A stretch of 64,000 nt of DNA. Origin: a virus. The notes under the pieces were generated by a model. That model saw only the letters and a list, made by a program, of their open reading frames with translations, had not been told where the DNA came from and searched no databases. Below are positions 22,837 through 43,566 of this stretch, piece after piece (position 1 is the stretch's first letter; every line of letters starts with the position of its first letter). A program made the translations under genes and the position numbers. The stretch covers positions 64,001-128,000 of the IMG/VR virus record IMGVR_UViG_3300009509_000001; one strand, given 5' to 3'.

Positions 22837-23283
22837 TTACAGAAACTTCTCCAGCTCGTCGTTGAGCTTCAGATAGCCTTCAGGGGCTTTGTCGCCCTTG
22901 AAAATCAATTCGACCTTTGCCTTCGTGTTGCGGCTGAACATGCCGCGGCGCATTTCGATGCTCATCTCGTGCTTGCACTCGTCGTCGTCGCACTCGTGTT
23001 CGTCCAGGCCACCGATCTCCACGTCGAACTCCATGCGCATCTTGTCGAGGCGAATGCCGCTGGCTGGCATGAGCGCAAGCATCGGCACTTCGATCTCTCG
23101 CATGGCTCCATCGCCGCCCGGCACCGGAACCTGCAGCTTGAGGGTCTTGACCTTTCCGTCCTCGTCGATGTGCTGCTTGATCGTATCAAGATGCTGGTTG
23201 CGCACCAGTTCCTGGGCCTTGATCACCGCGTTCTGCAGCGCCCGTATAAGTTTGCTCAGTCCCGTTACTCGTTTGTGTGCCAT
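22837..23283 (-). CDS. DUF2589-family protein (short type)
   Basis: LIRALQNAVIKAQ...IEVPMLALMP...LDKMRMEFDV...KVELIFKG..PEG. Confidence 0.8.
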   Translation of the reverse strand: MAHKRVTGLSKLIRALQNAVIKAQELVRNQHLDTIKQHIDEDGKVKTLKLQVPVPGGDGAMREIEVPMLALMPASGIRLDKMRMEFDVEIGGLDEHECDDDECKHEMSIEMRRGMFSRNTKAKVELIFKGDKAPEGYLKLNDELEKFL

Positions 23284-23914: not shown

Positions 23915-24201
23915 AATACCGGCTGCTCCTCCGTGATACGCGGCTGTCTGGTAAATCCGATGTGGTAGACTATGTGCTGGAGCACTACCTGGTGCTCGCC
24001 CATCTGGTACACGGCGAAGCCTTTCTCCTGCCCGATCAGCTTGCCCCTTGGGGACGACCGGTTGATGAGGAAGTTCACCTTGTCCATCGCCTTTCGGATC
24101 TCCTCTTCCGTCTTGATCCTGCTTGGATCGGTGTTACCCACGACGACCCGCTCTACGTGTCGGATCGCCGTGAGATCGAATGGTTTGTCGTCGTGCGACA
24201 T
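23911..24201 (-). CDS. Conserved-type hypothetical protein
   Basis: Well-formed 96-aa ORF with overlaps at both ends. Confidence 0.7.
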   Translation of the reverse strand: MSHDDKPFDLTAIRHVERVVVGNTDPSRIKTEEEIRKAMDKVNFLINRSSPRGKLIGQEKGFAVYQMGEHQVVLQHIVYHIGFTRQPRITEEQPVL

Positions 24202-24836
24202 CAGGGCGTTGTTGCCGGGGTTGGGCTGATGGCGTCGTTCATCATGTCGAGAACGCGGGCCAATCCTTCAGGCATGCCGCTGTCCGACGCACTGACCGTG
24301 ACGTCGTACTTGGCGCTGTTGTCGCTCTTGCGCGTGTGCGCCGAGTGCGACGAGGTCTTGCCATGCACCTTGACCGTGGCCTTGAACGGACCCCAGCCGA
24401 CACTGGCGCTGCCTTCGAAGCCGGCTTCGCTGTCGCTGGCCTCGGTGTCCTCGGTACTGGAGTTGACGCTCATGGTGAAGGCGATGTCCACCTTGTCGAC
24501 CTTGAGGGACGGCATGGGGATGATGGCCAGCAGCGGTACGTCGATCTCCACGTTCTTCGGGGTGATCTTGGAAACCGTCTTGGTCTTGTCGGCCGGGTCC
24601 TCCACCTGTTCAAGGATGTTCTGCATGTAGCCGAACTTCACCATGTTGGCGACCTTGATCGTCTTGGTCTTGTCGGCCGGGTCCTCCACTTCCTGGAATC
24701 CGGTCTTCAGAATGAAATCCGCGTTCGCACTGATCATCTGCGCGTTCGCCTTGGCTGCGGCCTGCAAAGGGCCGCCGATCAGGGAATCCATCGGCAGGTT
24801 GCCGAATTGTTTACCCATGTCTACGAGTCCAGGCAT
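24201..24836 (-). CDS. DUF2589-family protein (long type)
   Basis: LPMDSLIGGPL.AA..A, IDVPLLAIIP.PSLKVD.VDI.F.M.V, SAKYDV.V.A....PEGL; GGAGG RBS. Confidence 0.88.
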   Translation of the reverse strand: MPGLVDMGKQFGNLPMDSLIGGPLQAAAKANAQMISANADFILKTGFQEVEDPADKTKTIKVANMVKFGYMQNILEQVEDPADKTKTVSKITPKNVEIDVPLLAIIPMPSLKVDKVDIAFTMSVNSSTEDTEASDSEAGFEGSASVGWGPFKATVKVHGKTSSHSAHTRKSDNSAKYDVTVSASDSGMPEGLARVLDMMNDAISPTPATTP

Positions 24837-24997: not shown

Positions 24998-25149
24998 TGG
25001 CCAGGAAGGCGGGACTTGAACCCGCATAAGGATGCATCCACACCGACGGTCGGAACGCGAACGCGCTGACTACGCGCTCCAACCAAGCTACCCGGCCGAG
25101 CCGGGTCACTGCCAGTTGTGTCGGTGGCCTACCGTTCGGCCACTCCCTG
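24998..25149 (-). ncRNA. tRNA-like RNA (152 nt) with a 72-nt insert replacing the anticodon loop
   Basis: Acceptor CAGGGAG/CTTCCTG + G-CCA; D arm GCC/GGC; helix CACCGAC/GTCGGTG; variable arm GGAT/ATCC; T arm GCGGG-TTCAAGT-CCCGC. Confidence 0.8.
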
Positions 25150-25238: not shown

Positions 25239-25336
25239 TGGTGAAGAGTGACGGATTTGAACCGCCTTCAAGTGCGTCCTGCCCAACGGCCGAAGCCGTG
25301 CTCCGCTCTTGCTTTACCGACATAAGATAACCCTTC
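25239..25336 (-). ncRNA. tRNA-like RNA (98 nt) with expanded anticodon arm
   Basis: Acceptor GAAGGGT/ACTCTTC + A-CCA; T arm GGCGG-TTCAAAT-CCGTC; CAAG.GCG/CGC.CTTG helix enclosing an ACGGC-TTCG-GCCGT hairpin. Confidence 0.75.
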
Positions 25337-25411
25337 AATAAATGCCGACCCCTTACCACCATCATGTGTCAGGTAGTGCGCGGGTCGGCGCAATCAATGG
25401 AGGCAAGGTAC

Positions 25412-25663
25412 TCAAGTGAACCCGGAAGGGTACTGCTGCCATTTTATCGGCGGCCCCGAAAACAGGGCCATACCCTCCTCCAAACAGCCCGCTATGTCCA
25501 CCTCCAGGACGGGGGCCTGAGTTCCACAGGCGATGAGCAGACATGGCACGTCGGCGCTACCGAAGTCGCAGTGCGCCGGGTGGTTGTGGCCGCCCCTGCA
25601 TAGGACGTGATGCTTCACTGGCTGTACGGTGATCAAACCCGCCGCGAGCAAAGTCATCAACAT
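25412..25663 (-). CDS. Small Cys/His-rich protein with hydrophobic N-terminus
   Basis: AGGAGG RBS before ATG; MLMTLLAAGLITV. Confidence 0.4.
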   Translation of the reverse strand: MLMTLLAAGLITVQPVKHHVLCRGGHNHPAHCDFGSADVPCLLIACGTQAPVLEVDIAGCLEEGMALFSGPPIKWQQYPSGFT

Positions 25664-25825
25664 GGCTGCACCTCCTGTGTTGAAATCTAAAGGGCACTTC
25701 CCTCCCTCCCCTTCGTGAGCCACGTTCGCTCCGTCCAGTTCGGGAGGTGCCGGCGACCCGGCAAGGCAAGAACCCGCCTGCGGGAGCGCGGCGGCGATGC
25801 GCCGTCAATCACGCTCCATGCTTTA

Positions 25826-25854
25826 TCTATAACGGGAGTTTGCCGCTAAGTCAA
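25826..25854 (-). promoter_or_regulatory. Sigma70-like promoter driving the RNA locus
   Basis: TTGACT-N17-TATAGA. Confidence 0.6.
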
Positions 25855-25871
25855 GGCAACTTGGAAATTAC

Positions 25872-25900
25872 TCAGTGGATAATCAGTGGATAATCAGTGG
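25872..25900. repeat. 11-bp tandem repeat, about 2.6 copies
   Basis: TCAGTGGATAA x2 + TCAGTGG. Confidence 0.85.
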
Positions 25901-40740: not shown

Positions 40741-43566
40741 TCATTTGCCGACCGCCCGCTTCACCATGGTCTTGATCTTGCCGGTGTTTTTCGTGACGCC
40801 CTTGGCCTTGTCGTCGTATATGGCGGTGCAATACATGTCCTTGACGCAGGTGATGGGCAGTACCTGGCCAATGTGGGCCATGCACCACTTGTCGATGTGG
40901 TAGCGGGCCTTCCCGTCGTCGCCGCTTGCCCGGGCAGTCAGGATCTTTACCTTCTTGCCGTCGGCGAGCCATGCCTTTACCCGGTCGACCATGGGCTTGA
41001 TCGGTGCGCCGATGTGGCCACGGCCCTTCCATTCGGTATATCGGGCCAGCGTGCCGTCAAGGTCCACGCCGATCCATTCCTTTGCCGGGTCGTATTTGAG
41101 GGCTTTCTTGTGCAGGTCGTATCGTTGTGCGGCCGCCCGCAGCTCTTCCTGCGGTATGCCGACGTTGTGTTCATTGAGCTTGGGCCGTACGGCGTCGGCC
41201 GGTACCCGGAACATACCGCACAGCTCGCGCAGCTTGGCCTCCAGCTGGTCGGCGTCCATCGCCGCGGTCTTCCGCAGCCGTCGACTCAATGCCAGTAAAG
41301 CGGGTGCCGCCAGTGCACCGGTCGCTCCGCCGGCCAAGGCGCCGATAAGCTTGTCGTCGGCGAGCCATGCGCCGGCCGCTCCGCCCAGGCCCAGCCCGGC
41401 CAATGCCGCAGTGCCGTAGCCGCCCGGTGCCTTGGCCTTCGGCTGTTGCGGCTGCGGTTGTGGCCGTGGCGTCTGTGTGACCTGCGGTTCGACGCCTGTT
41501 TCGGGTTCGCCGTTATCGCGCATGAGCAATGCCGTGCCGCCGGCGGTGGCCGCAGTCGCCGCAGTGGCGATCGCCGCCTTCTTGCCGGTCGACATCTTGC
41601 CGGTCGCCGGCGGGTCGGTGATTCTTGCCGTGGGCTTGGCCGGCGGTGGATCGGTGATGCGTGCCGTGGACTTGGCGAAAGGCTCCGGTGCCGGCAGGGG
41701 CTCGAACCACGACCTGTTGTGCGTCGGGTCCGCGTTCCAGTCGTCGCCGTAGCCCATGACCGTTCTTGAATTTACGTTGCGCCCCTTTCCGGTCGCTTCC
41801 TGAAACTTCAGCGCCGTATCCATGTATTCGCCGGCGGCCCGCGAAAGCTTGTCGGAGTCTACGTTGCCCCTGAGCGACGGGTCTTTGCGCAGGCGATCCT
41901 TTATCGCCATGCTGACGTCGTACGGCCCGCGGCCGGACGTGTACGTGTGTCCCGGGTGGACGCGATCGATCAGCTTTTGATGGAGCCGCTGGGCGCGCGG
42001 ACCCTCCAAGTACCGCATCGCGTCCATGTACGGCATTTCGCCGGCCTTCTCGTACATGCGCTTCAGCACGCCGAAAGCGCGGGTCGCGTCCGACTCGAAC
42101 TTGAACGCCGGCGTCTTGGCCGCAGCGGTCTTCGGCAGCAGGTTGCCGACCACCACGAGCCGGTCGCGAAGGCTCGGATTCGCCATGAGCCTGAAATGGG
42201 CGTCCGCCTGCTTCTTCAGCTGCTTGGCCTTGGCGCTGGTGGTCGCCGCCACCGGACCGCCGGCCGGCAACAGCTTCTTGATGCGCAGCGCCAGGAGCTT
42301 GCGGCCGTTGATGGTGGGCTGGCCGTTCTCGTCGGTTCCTATACTTTCAACCTTCACAGGCTTGTTCTTGAATCTGCCTACGAGAACGGTGTCGCCCATC
42401 TCTATGTCGAGCACGATCTTCGCGATCTTGCGCAGCCGCGGGTCGGCCAACCGCTGCTTCAGCCGGATCTCCCGGTCGATCGCCCTGATGTCCATGTGGT
42501 AAGTTTTTATCTCAGCCTGCTTCGCCAGGGGCTTGAGCTCTCCCTTGGTCGGGCCGTCGCTCATGGCCCATTCCTTGAATTCGGCCCACGGCAGTTCGAC
42601 CACGGCGCCGTCGCGGTCCCAGCCGTCCTCGTAGTTCTGCCGGTAGGCTTGCACCGCCTGCTGCTTCGTGACGTAGCCGATCATGCACTTGTGCTCGTCG
42701 AACTTGCCGTCGGCGTCCAGCTGGTTGATCACGTACACGCTCTCGGCGTCCCATATGGTCTCGTCGTGGGGTATGCCCGGATTGATGAAGACGTCGAGAT
42801 GATCCTTGTCGTAGCCCCTGCTGCCGCGGATGTAGCCGTAGTCGTCCCACATGGTCTGGCTCCATTCGTTACCGTCGTCGTCCACTCCGCTCCTGACGGA
42901 CTTGAACGGGTTCTCGATGCTGATGTCCAGGCCGTCGATGGTTACGTGCGCCTTCTTGTAGTTCTCGGCCTTGATCTGGGCCTCGGTCGGCTGTAGCTCC
43001 ATGTCCTGGCCCTTGGCCACCCCATGCTCGACCTCCGCGGCGGTCTTGGCCAGGCGCGGTATGAGCAGCGTACTGTAGCGGTCGGCCGGGTTGCTCCACC
43101 GGATGGCGCTGATCGGAAACTTCTGGCCGCTCACGAAATTGGCGAGCCGTGCGTACTTGGCGGGGTCCACGTCCTTCTTCAGGTAGGCGACGGTGACGTG
43201 CGGCCGGTAGGTCTTGTGCGTTTCGCCCGGCATCCTGACGCCGGCGCGCACCGCCTTGTTCAATGCATGCAGGTCCGGACTGTCGACGTCGAACTTCAGC
43301 ACCTTGTAGTCGCCCTGGTCGAAGTGACTGAGCCCGCCGACGGTACCCTGCCCCTGCAGGATTTCCTTGATCGCCTCCTTCGTGGAGCGCGGGTCGTCTT
43401 CTTCATGCCCGTAGGCAAGCGTGACGTGTGGATGCTTCTCGAGGCCGAACCCGTCCTCGTCGTACAAATCCTCCTTGGCGATGGCGCGCTGGATCATAGC
43501 GATCCGAAGCGCCACGCTCCTGGGCATGTCGATGCCCATCCAACCGTATGATTTTTCTTTAGCCAT
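40741..43566 (-). CDS. Polyvalent protein: 2H phosphoesterase (Acb1-like), InPase-like domain, small beta domain, TM/Gly zipper, HAD phosphatase
   Basis: Two HxT motifs (PHVTL, PHVTV); PTEAQ..AENYKK..ISIENP...YGYI...D.DHLDVF...FDEHK; DLDGT...LTAR...IYDD. Confidence 0.85.
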   Translation of the reverse strand: MAKEKSYGWMGIDMPRSVALRIAMIQRAIAKEDLYDEDGFGLEKHPHVTLAYGHEEDDPRSTKEAIKEILQGQGTVGGLSHFDQGDYKVLKFDVDSPDLHALNKAVRAGVRMPGETHKTYRPHVTVAYLKKDVDPAKYARLANFVSGQKFPISAIRWSNPADRYSTLLIPRLAKTAAEVEHGVAKGQDMELQPTEAQIKAENYKKAHVTIDGLDISIENPFKSVRSGVDDDGNEWSQTMWDDYGYIRGSRGYDKDHLDVFINPGIPHDETIWDAESVYVINQLDADGKFDEHKCMIGYVTKQQAVQAYRQNYEDGWDRDGAVVELPWAEFKEWAMSDGPTKGELKPLAKQAEIKTYHMDIRAIDREIRLKQRLADPRLRKIAKIVLDIEMGDTVLVGRFKNKPVKVESIGTDENGQPTINGRKLLALRIKKLLPAGGPVAATTSAKAKQLKKQADAHFRLMANPSLRDRLVVVGNLLPKTAAAKTPAFKFESDATRAFGVLKRMYEKAGEMPYMDAMRYLEGPRAQRLHQKLIDRVHPGHTYTSGRGPYDVSMAIKDRLRKDPSLRGNVDSDKLSRAAGEYMDTALKFQEATGKGRNVNSRTVMGYGDDWNADPTHNRSWFEPLPAPEPFAKSTARITDPPPAKPTARITDPPATGKMSTGKKAAIATAATAATAGGTALLMRDNGEPETGVEPQVTQTPRPQPQPQQPKAKAPGGYGTAALAGLGLGGAAGAWLADDKLIGALAGGATGALAAPALLALSRRLRKTAAMDADQLEAKLRELCGMFRVPADAVRPKLNEHNVGIPQEELRAAAQRYDLHKKALKYDPAKEWIGVDLDGTLARYTEWKGRGHIGAPIKPMVDRVKAWLADGKKVKILTARASGDDGKARYHIDKWCMAHIGQVLPITCVKDMYCTAIYDDKAKGVTKNTGKIKTMVKRAVGK

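Follow-up and report, generated by a model that had tools for sequence, protein, structure and literature searches.

The stretch of DNA studied here, 64,000 nucleotides (nt) long and hereafter called the window, covers bases 64001-128000 of the phage record IMGVR_UViG_3300009509_000001. On its minus strand, in the 5′ leader of a gene for a DUF2589 protein, lies a 152-nt gene that we call element A. It specifies an RNA with the shape of a transfer RNA (tRNA), in which a structured insert takes the place of the anticodon loop and which has no usable anticodon. A second tRNA-shaped gene without an anticodon, element B, lies close by. The features of the locus are collected in Table 1, together with those neighbouring features that are mentioned further below.

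Table 1. Features of element A and its surroundings, in window coordinates.
Feature	Position	Strand	Basis or remark
Element A, whole tRNA-shaped RNA gene, 152 nt	24998..25149	-	Sequence, minimum free energy (MFE) cloverleaf, covariance model 179-194 bits
Acceptor 5′ strand CAGGGAG	25143..25149	-	Pairs with 25002-25008
D arm GGCC-GAACGGUA-GGCC, class II, tRNA-Leu-like	25126..25141	-	Fold; model aligns to D arm of T4 and T5 tRNA-Leu
Anticodon-type stem, 5′ strand ACCGAC	25120..25125	-	Pairs with 25042-25047
J1, single-stranded 9-nt linker ACAACUGGC	25111..25119	-	Same in all three homologues
P2 hairpin	25086..25110	-	Base AG.GACCC / GGGUA.CU invariant; apex CCCGGC-UCG-GCCGGG variable
P3 hairpin, 12-bp helix GGUUGGAGCGCG/CGCGUUCCGACC, 13-nt loop	25048..25084	-	Covariation
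Anticodon-type stem, 3′ strand GUCGGU	25042..25047	-	Fold, pair counts
Long variable arm GU-GGA-UGCA-UCC-UUAU	25026..25041	-	Fold; one compensatory pair
T arm GCGGG-UUCAAGU-CCCGC	25009..25025	-	Fold; one compensatory pair
Acceptor 3′ strand CUUCCUG, discriminator G, encoded CCA	24998..25008	-	Sequence
Element B, second anticodon-less tRNA-shaped gene	25239..25337	-	Sequence; tRNA-Sec 24.3 bits, E = 0.08 (Rfam); model R2 18 bits, E = 0.009
Cassette of 540 nt, relative to contig L053	25150-25689	-	Exactly at 5′ end of element A
83-codon open reading frame in the cassette	25412-25663	-	
Insertion of ~100 nt, relative to contig L053	24893-24994	-	Exactly at 3′ end of element A
Downstream DUF2589 gene	24201..24836	-	Pfam PF11655, E = 1.7e-36
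DUF2589 paralogue	22837-23283	-	
Putative promoter TTGACT-17 nt-TATAGA, before the leader	25826..25854	-	By eye, inferred only; consensus scan without a call
Other copy of the GCCUUGCCGGG..CCGGC hairpin	25747-25768		
Tandem CCACTGATTAT, three copies, the last imperfect	25871-25900	-	
Gene for a 941-aa protein	40741-43566	-	

Structure of element A

Element A consists of a class II tRNA body built around an arm that does not decode. The original prediction, made from the DNA letters of the window, had described a 7-bp acceptor, a G discriminator followed by CCA, a type-II D arm, a variable hairpin and a T arm, all of which are present on the minus strand; one of the acceptor pairs is G·U. The nucleotides that make the tertiary contacts of the L shape are kept as well (U8, A14, the GG of the D loop, and UUC and A58 of the T loop). 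The stem that had been given as CACCGAC/GUCGGUG is confirmed as (C)ACCGAC/GUCGGU(G), 6-7 bp long, and encloses exactly 72 nt. Measured against a canonical tRNA, the acceptor, D and T arms and the tertiary nucleotides conform, with helices that covary, whereas the 5-bp stem with a 7-nt loop (U33 and a purine at 37) is lacking. The MFE structure calculated with RNAfold is a class II cloverleaf of -73.9 kcal/mol, to be compared with a mean of -61.5 kcal/mol for shuffled sequences (z = -3.0; 0 of 200 shuffles as good), and RNAalifold run on the three homologues described below returns the same fold.

The insert forms a three-way junction where a 7-nt loop would be expected, in the order J1, P2 and P3. 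J1, ACAACUGGC, makes up, together with the next two bases, the invariant block ACAACUGGCAG. P3 adjoins the 3′ strand of the anticodon-type stem with no spacer at all, and can thus stack on it. Two hairpins had been proposed within the insert. The first, CCCGGC-UCG-GCCGGG, does exist as the apex of P2, although only the base of P2 is conserved; the second, AGCGCG/CGCGUU, gives way to the longer 12-bp helix GGUUGGAGCGCG/CGCGUUCCGACC of P3, which the comparison of homologues favours. We also considered a nested or permuted tRNA within the insert, with P2 as a closed acceptor-like stem and UAGCUUGG as a D-arm-like part. Inspected by eye, this gave no coherent cloverleaf and was not conserved in the homologue on contig L003.

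The usual detectors do not recognize such a gene. With default settings, ARAGORN finds no canonical tRNA or transfer-messenger RNA (tmRNA) gene, either in the window or across all 194,576 bp of the genome, in which only two sites combine a T loop with CCA, namely elements A and B. As the original prediction had suggested checking, ARAGORN makes no call for element A and Rfam gives no match at its gathering thresholds. The best weak Rfam match covering it is to tRNA-Sec (RF01852) and scores 16.8 bits, where the threshold is 47, and the tRNA family RF00005 does not match even at E up to 10. Selenocysteine tRNAs are marked by an 8/5 or 9/4 acceptor/T branch, a 6-bp D stem and a UCA anticodon. Element A has a 7/5 branch and a D stem of 3-4 bp, and we rejected this identity. 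The lack of tmRNA hallmarks noted earlier also holds: there is a G3-C70 pair, a normal D stem and no tag frame, and both the tmRNA search of ARAGORN and Rfam are negative. Genes of this type thus slip past ARAGORN, Rfam at its thresholds and routine annotation.

Homologues, covariation and module borders

Direct searches gave nothing: when the region was compared by BLAST with 50,697 phage records, none matched, and exact and IUPAC pattern scans of IMG/VR, JGI metagenome contigs and GTDB genomes met with chance matches only, located in coding DNA or ordinary tRNAs. Homologues were reached instead through protein relatives of the neighbouring genes on metagenomic phage contigs. A DUF2589 protein 91% identical to that of the window is encoded on the 1.3-kb Logan contig L003, and a relative of the upstream HAD-like protein, 96% identical, on contig L053. 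The first contig carries a homologue of element A (L003:67-226) that scores 74 bits (E = 5e-15) with a covariance model made from the window sequence alone; the homologue on the second (L053:2013-2164) scores 168 bits with a covariance model and is 96.8% identical to element A. DUF2589 relatives at 55-86% identity (L002, L021-L029) have either no intergenic room upstream or no match there. Our model R2 found no match in 16 IMG/VR records with DUF2589 relatives and 10 with portal relatives, which is weak evidence as these are mostly fragments.

The homologues support the fold in detail. In L003 the acceptor reads GUUGACG/CGUCAGC, the discriminator is A73, the D arm is of the same type and the stem is CACCGCC/GGCGGUG. 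The CCA is encoded in all three sequences, and the discriminator is G in the other two. In the three-sequence alignment 96.4% of the cells are paired, and 13 pairs have changed on both sides and are yet kept (four in the acceptor, six of the 12 in P3, and one each in the stem, the variable arm and the T arm). None of 500 shuffles reaches 13 such pairs, and slid controls give 0-3. Five of the seven acceptor pairs differ between L003 and the window, including the four that changed on both sides, and the A-U pair of the stem is C-G in L003 and G·U in L053. The five differences between element A and its L053 copy behave as the structure predicts, since three keep or improve a pair and one falls at RNA position 42 (window position 25108), which is U, A or G across the three sequences and hence unconstrained; the fifth turns a G·U into a U·U. 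The covariation that the original prediction called for is present, and neither homologue shows the normal 7-nt loop and random decay that would have marked a pseudo-tRNA, as both keep the insert and its pairing.

Three other candidates were rejected in the light of these sequences. An overlapping open reading frame of 98 aa is not retained as a protein, because its upstream part is missing in the homologues and the substitutions follow the pattern of RNA helices. A switch in which J1 pairs with the 3′ strand of the stem can be drawn for element A and L053, but it is weakened by the compensatory change in L003. A pairing of UGGC in J1 with the 3′ GCCA end shows no covariation with A73 of L003.

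Conservation is unevenly distributed between shell and insert. An insert core of 27 nt, composed of ACAACUGGCAG, the P2 base GACCC/GGGU and the J2 linker AGCUUGG, is invariant in all three sequences, and in the adjacent DUF2589 genes 26 of the 87 four-fold degenerate sites (30%) differ between the window and L003. From the 3′ strand of the D stem through J1 to the base of P2 there are two differences in 28 nt, with none in GGGUAGCUUGG. Because the acceptor and the discriminator, which are the main identity elements for charging, differ while the insert core does not, the sequences point to the insert rather than the charging end as the part under selection.

The flanks of element A are 90% and 67% identical to those of the L053 copy, well below the identity of the element itself. 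Compared with L053, the window has two additional segments that abut the element exactly: at its 5′ end a cassette that contains element B and an 83-codon open reading frame, and at its 3′ end an insertion of about 100 nt. In L003 its 5′ neighbour is a canonical tRNA-Met and its 3′ neighbour another structured RNA. Judged from these comparisons, element A is a sharply bounded module, and the ends of tRNA-shaped genes act as cassette borders. The ~100-nt insertion holds a second copy of the GCCUUGCCGGG..CCGGC hairpin. The tRNA-Met(CAU) of L003 (L003:1-58), with an encoded CCA, scores 36 bits with the Rfam tRNA model and stands at the place of element B in the window, and the stretch that follows the A-type element (L003:228-340) is GC-rich and structured, ends in ...CCUCCUACCA and is not tRNA-shaped.

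Element B has a GAAGGGU/ACUCUUC acceptor, A73, CCA and a GGCGG-UUCAAAU-CCGUC T arm, and where the anticodon arm should be it carries a long, irregular arm that ends in a UUCG tetraloop. It is missing from both L053 and L003, which leaves it without comparative support, and its MFE fold is no better than that of shuffled sequences (z = -1.2).

This turnover invites the thought that element A might itself be a decaying pseudo-tRNA or a recombination scar, the functionless remnant of an array of tRNAs that the phage once had. Exchange of tRNA-type cassettes is frequent at this hot spot, with tRNA-Met in L003, element B in the window and neither in L053, and parts of the insert resemble the sequence of tRNA D arms, AACUGGCAG being identical to the D loop of a tRNA-Asn in L012. 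Against decay stand the 13 compensatory pairs and 96% pairing across homologues, an element 96.8% identical in the midst of DNA that is 67-90% identical, and an invariant core next to a gene with 30% four-fold divergence. We consider this explanation most improbable.

The genome that carries the element, with a G+C content of about 59-60%, is bounded by direct terminal repeats and classed as complete; almost all of its genes are encoded on the minus strand. Judged by its genes (a thymidylate synthase homologue, SbcD, glycosyl- and methyltransferase fusions, and a giant protein with InPase and 2H-phosphoesterase domains), the virus is a large tailed phage that infects bacteria, and a bacterial host would also fit the Shine-Dalgarno sites and the encoded CCA ends. 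The sequencing runs on record for the DNA of this phage include no RNA run and are mainly marine-sediment metagenomes, with small shares of other sediment, mangrove and soil; contigs from four of the runs are short and match the window exactly, showing neither variants nor joints. The two DUF2589 paralogues of the window lie about 1 kb apart, and the pair recurs, with small open reading frames in between, in all related phage contigs. A tandem repeat of CCACTGATTAT is located between the HAD-like gene and the promoter-like site. The 941-aa protein combines a 2H phosphoesterase domain (LigT/2′,5′-ligase-like and weakly Acb1-like) with an InPase domain of the kind seen in giant virion or DarB-like phage proteins, and ends in a polynucleotide-kinase-like stretch.

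Possible roles of shell and insert

The original prediction had left room for an intron removed by proteins, and a tRNA whose insert is cut out by protein machinery, as proposed for tRNAs of Lak megaphages, has some arguments in its favour. Run in intron mode, ARAGORN reads all three sequences as tRNA-Gly (acc, gcc and gcc) with an NCC anticodon in the same register; phage tRNAs with unexplained, ‘enigmatic’ introns are on record in Lak megaphages (PMC6784885); and the insert would pair with the ‘anticodon’, as happens in some pre-tRNAs. Nevertheless, the loop predicted by ARAGORN is non-canonical in two of the three sequences (G33), and the splice sites it proposes fall within a helix that covaries, and shift from one homologue to another (28/29 versus 30/31). 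Deletion of the insert by hand, in two plausible registers of a 5-bp stem, yields no U33 loop shared by element A and L003. A loose pattern search for the bulge-helix-bulge (BHB) motif produced only scattered chance hits in this G+C-rich RNA, and the change of an A-U to a C-G pair in the stem conflicts with the single candidate located there. Group I introns have a catalytic core, P3-P9, that usually takes 200 nt or more. The insert has 72 nt, and Rfam detects no group I intron or known ribozyme in it even at E up to 10, in agreement with the earlier exclusion of group I and group II introns. In the complete genome we found no tRNA-intron endonuclease (PF01974), RtcB, Rnl-type ligase or CCA-adding enzyme, with searches that succeeded on control genomes each time. 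No Gly identity set is compatible with a class II body that has G73 or A73, and the encoded CCA and the Shine-Dalgarno sites indicate a bacterial host. Since excision leaves no canonical loop, neither a group I core nor a BHB motif is present, and genes for a splicing endonuclease or an RNA ligase are absent, both an intron-bearing tRNA and a decaying pseudo-tRNA are unlikely, and for the former we would retain a very small probability. A role as modulator of RelA or the ribosome, also raised originally, finds no support, as there is no anticodon.

A second possibility stems from the position of the element. In all three phages (window, L003 and L053) it is located in the 5′ leader of the DUF2589 gene, 50-160 nt before the start codon; the final ~45 nt of this leader are conserved, and no terminator was found between the element and the gene. 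The leader behind the putative promoter is also conserved in L053. Element A could then be a processing signal acting only in cis, its tRNA shape recruiting RNase P and 3′ trimming so as to set a short, stable 5′ end for the DUF2589 mRNA, while the released RNA would have no job. RNase P and 3′ maturation, however, need only the acceptor/T half, so that the invariant 27-nt core and the covarying 12-bp P3 would go unexplained, and the more distant relatives (L002, L021-L029) express their DUF2589 gene without any such element. A role confined to cis thus seems unlikely to us.

One may also suppose that the tRNA body itself does the work. In that case the elbow, the acceptor end and the CCA would make element A a decoy or a chargeable mimic, the insert serving only to block decoding; the targets could be host enzymes whose binding or modification of tRNAs does not depend on the anticodon, such as acceptor-end defence toxins, LeuRS or SerRS, or EF-Tu. 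The three homologues all retain the encoded CCA and every nucleotide of the L-shape tertiary contacts. The shell belongs to class II (the Leu/Ser type), and the Leu and Ser synthetases do not read the anticodon. The locus also lies in a region of small genes, and one large gene elsewhere in the window has a weak, sub-threshold similarity (E = 5e-4) to Acb1, which counteracts the cyclic-oligonucleotide-based antiphage signalling system (CBASS). The pattern of change is, however, the opposite of what a working charging end would predict: the acceptor differs at five of seven pairs, four of them on both sides, and the discriminator goes from G to A, with the insert core remaining invariant. Moreover, a simple hairpin such as that of element B would suffice to block decoding, and a stoichiometric decoy would be inefficient against an enzyme. 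The aminoacylatable scaffold or decoy of the original prediction is thus still conceivable, but the variable acceptor and discriminator render it rather doubtful.

The reading that we prefer, with a probability of roughly one in two, is that element A is a non-decoding tRNA-shaped RNA whose shell is a frame for processing and stability and whose conserved insert is the working part. The element would be transcribed with the leader of the DUF2589 operon. Host tRNA-maturation enzymes might then excise it, RNase P cutting at the 5′ end and trimming of the 3′ end proceeding to the encoded CCA, and the released element would persist as a stable RNA of about 152 nt, for which RNA1 and RNA2 of phage T5 offer a precedent. 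The pattern of conservation suggests that the insert core is what works, most likely by docking a protein or an RNA of the host or the phage. The drifting charging determinants and the frozen insert core together argue that the insert is a functional payload, for which the tRNA body would be the vehicle of delivery and the source of stability.

Several points weigh against this reading. Element A is known from its sequence and its predicted fold, and from these we infer its production and processing. The comparison comprises three sequences from two lineages, and as two of them are 97% identical, the covariation rests almost wholly on the pair formed by element A and L003, whose alignment was fitted to the structure model. 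Recent exchange of the module, and not long purifying selection, could partly explain the invariant core. The NCC register that ARAGORN finds in all three sequences leaves some slight room for a spliced tRNA, and the position in the 5′ leader leaves a purely cis role possible. Finally, the complement of J1 is not enriched in the phage genome, so that no antisense partner was found there.

Neither did we find, in the genome, a site complementary to the 3′ ends of elements A or B at which they could act as tRNA-like primers, despite the presence of a retron-type reverse transcriptase. This enzyme of 387 aa is encoded outside the window (G000:C1:163459-164136, minus strand; L051:1114-2277). Its nearest relatives are of the retron type: it matches the NCBIfam retron St85 family at E = 7e-47, which stays under the cut-off of that family, and Pfam RVT_1 at 62 bits. 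Its gene has no direct repeats nearby, and no link between it and the tRNA-like RNAs was found.

Going one step further than a working insert in a stable frame, one may tentatively propose that the insert is a natural RNA cargo carried on a tRNA frame, perhaps a sequence-specific sponge or aptamer for a host factor such as a protein of defence or of RNA metabolism. If this were true, the anticodon-less shells of phages, including RNA1 and RNA2 of T5 and elements A and B, would represent a general device for delivering small functional RNAs by way of host tRNA maturation.

Relationship to known tRNA-like RNAs

The shell of element A is Leu-like. When R2 is run unfiltered over the tRNA clusters of T5 and T4, tRNA-Leu comes first in both (22.6 and 32 bits, respectively), and on the tRNA-Leu of T4 all arms align, with the 93 insert positions of the model landing on the 7-nt anticodon loop. 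That loop is the difference, since in element A 72 nt stand in its place; in addition, tRNA-Leu uses A73, whereas two of the three members of the element A family have G73.

Extra or foreign structure at the anticodon position is found in several other RNAs. Intron-containing tRNAs, whether with archaeal BHB introns, bacterial group I introns or those of the Lak phages, also carry additional RNA there. In tmRNA, a tRNA-like acceptor/T domain with CCA is likewise combined with another structure that replaces the anticodon arm, but element A, with only 152 nt, has no tag reading frame and no pseudoknots, and its third acceptor pair is G3-C70 and not G3·U70. The YrlA-type Y RNAs that work with Ro60/Rsr similarly join a noncoding RNA that mimics a tRNA to a protein-binding module. 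According to what Chen et al. 2014 are said to have described, YrlA is permuted, its ends lying in the Ro-binding stem and its acceptor-like stem being closed by a loop, a topology unlike that of element A. An identity with YrlA or other Y RNAs was rejected, as there is no Rfam match and the TROVE domain (PF05731), detected in control genomes, is missing from the complete phage genome. One parallel to a cargo is man-made: in the engineered tRNA scaffold of Ponchon and Dardel the acceptor, D and T arms are kept and the cargo is placed in the anticodon arm, and RNA inserted in this way is processed and protected in Escherichia coli (PMC3753655).

Phages themselves offer the nearest comparison. 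The tRNA cluster of T4 yields the small stable species 1 and 2 RNAs (rnaC and rnaD), the role of which is stated to be unknown (PMC3014915). A T arm and a long arm are present in rnaC, which R2 scores at 17.5 bits, and its MFE fold shows no clear D arm or 7-bp acceptor; rnaD is not tRNA-shaped in its MFE fold. RNA1 and RNA2 of T5 (AY543070.1, 30501-30644 and 32959-33083) are annotated as ‘tRNA-like stable RNA with unknown functions’. Like element A, they are encoded by a phage, among or beside tRNA-type genes, and have acceptor, D, long variable and T arms; in both, a stem of about 6 bp closes a structured insert, of 50 nt in RNA1 and 55 nt in RNA2, and not an anticodon loop. The inserts have no sequence similarity to that of element A (R2 scores of 7.9 and 11.7 bits, below those of real tRNAs), RNA1 has no encoded CCA, and the two T5 genes lie within a large array of genuine tRNA genes, whereas the phage of element A has no canonical tRNA. 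Judged by the folds, element A shares the build of RNA1 and RNA2, a class II shell with a structured insert replacing the anticodon loop, the likeness being one of architecture and not of sequence. The ‘new tRNA-mimic class’ of the original prediction is upheld insofar as the tRNA shape is real, selected and non-decoding. It is not a new class, for element A belongs to the already known tRNA-like stable RNAs of phages, a kind whose function has gone unexplained for decades. The build familiar from T5 has now been met again in an unrelated, uncultured phage of 195 kb that has no real tRNA of its own.

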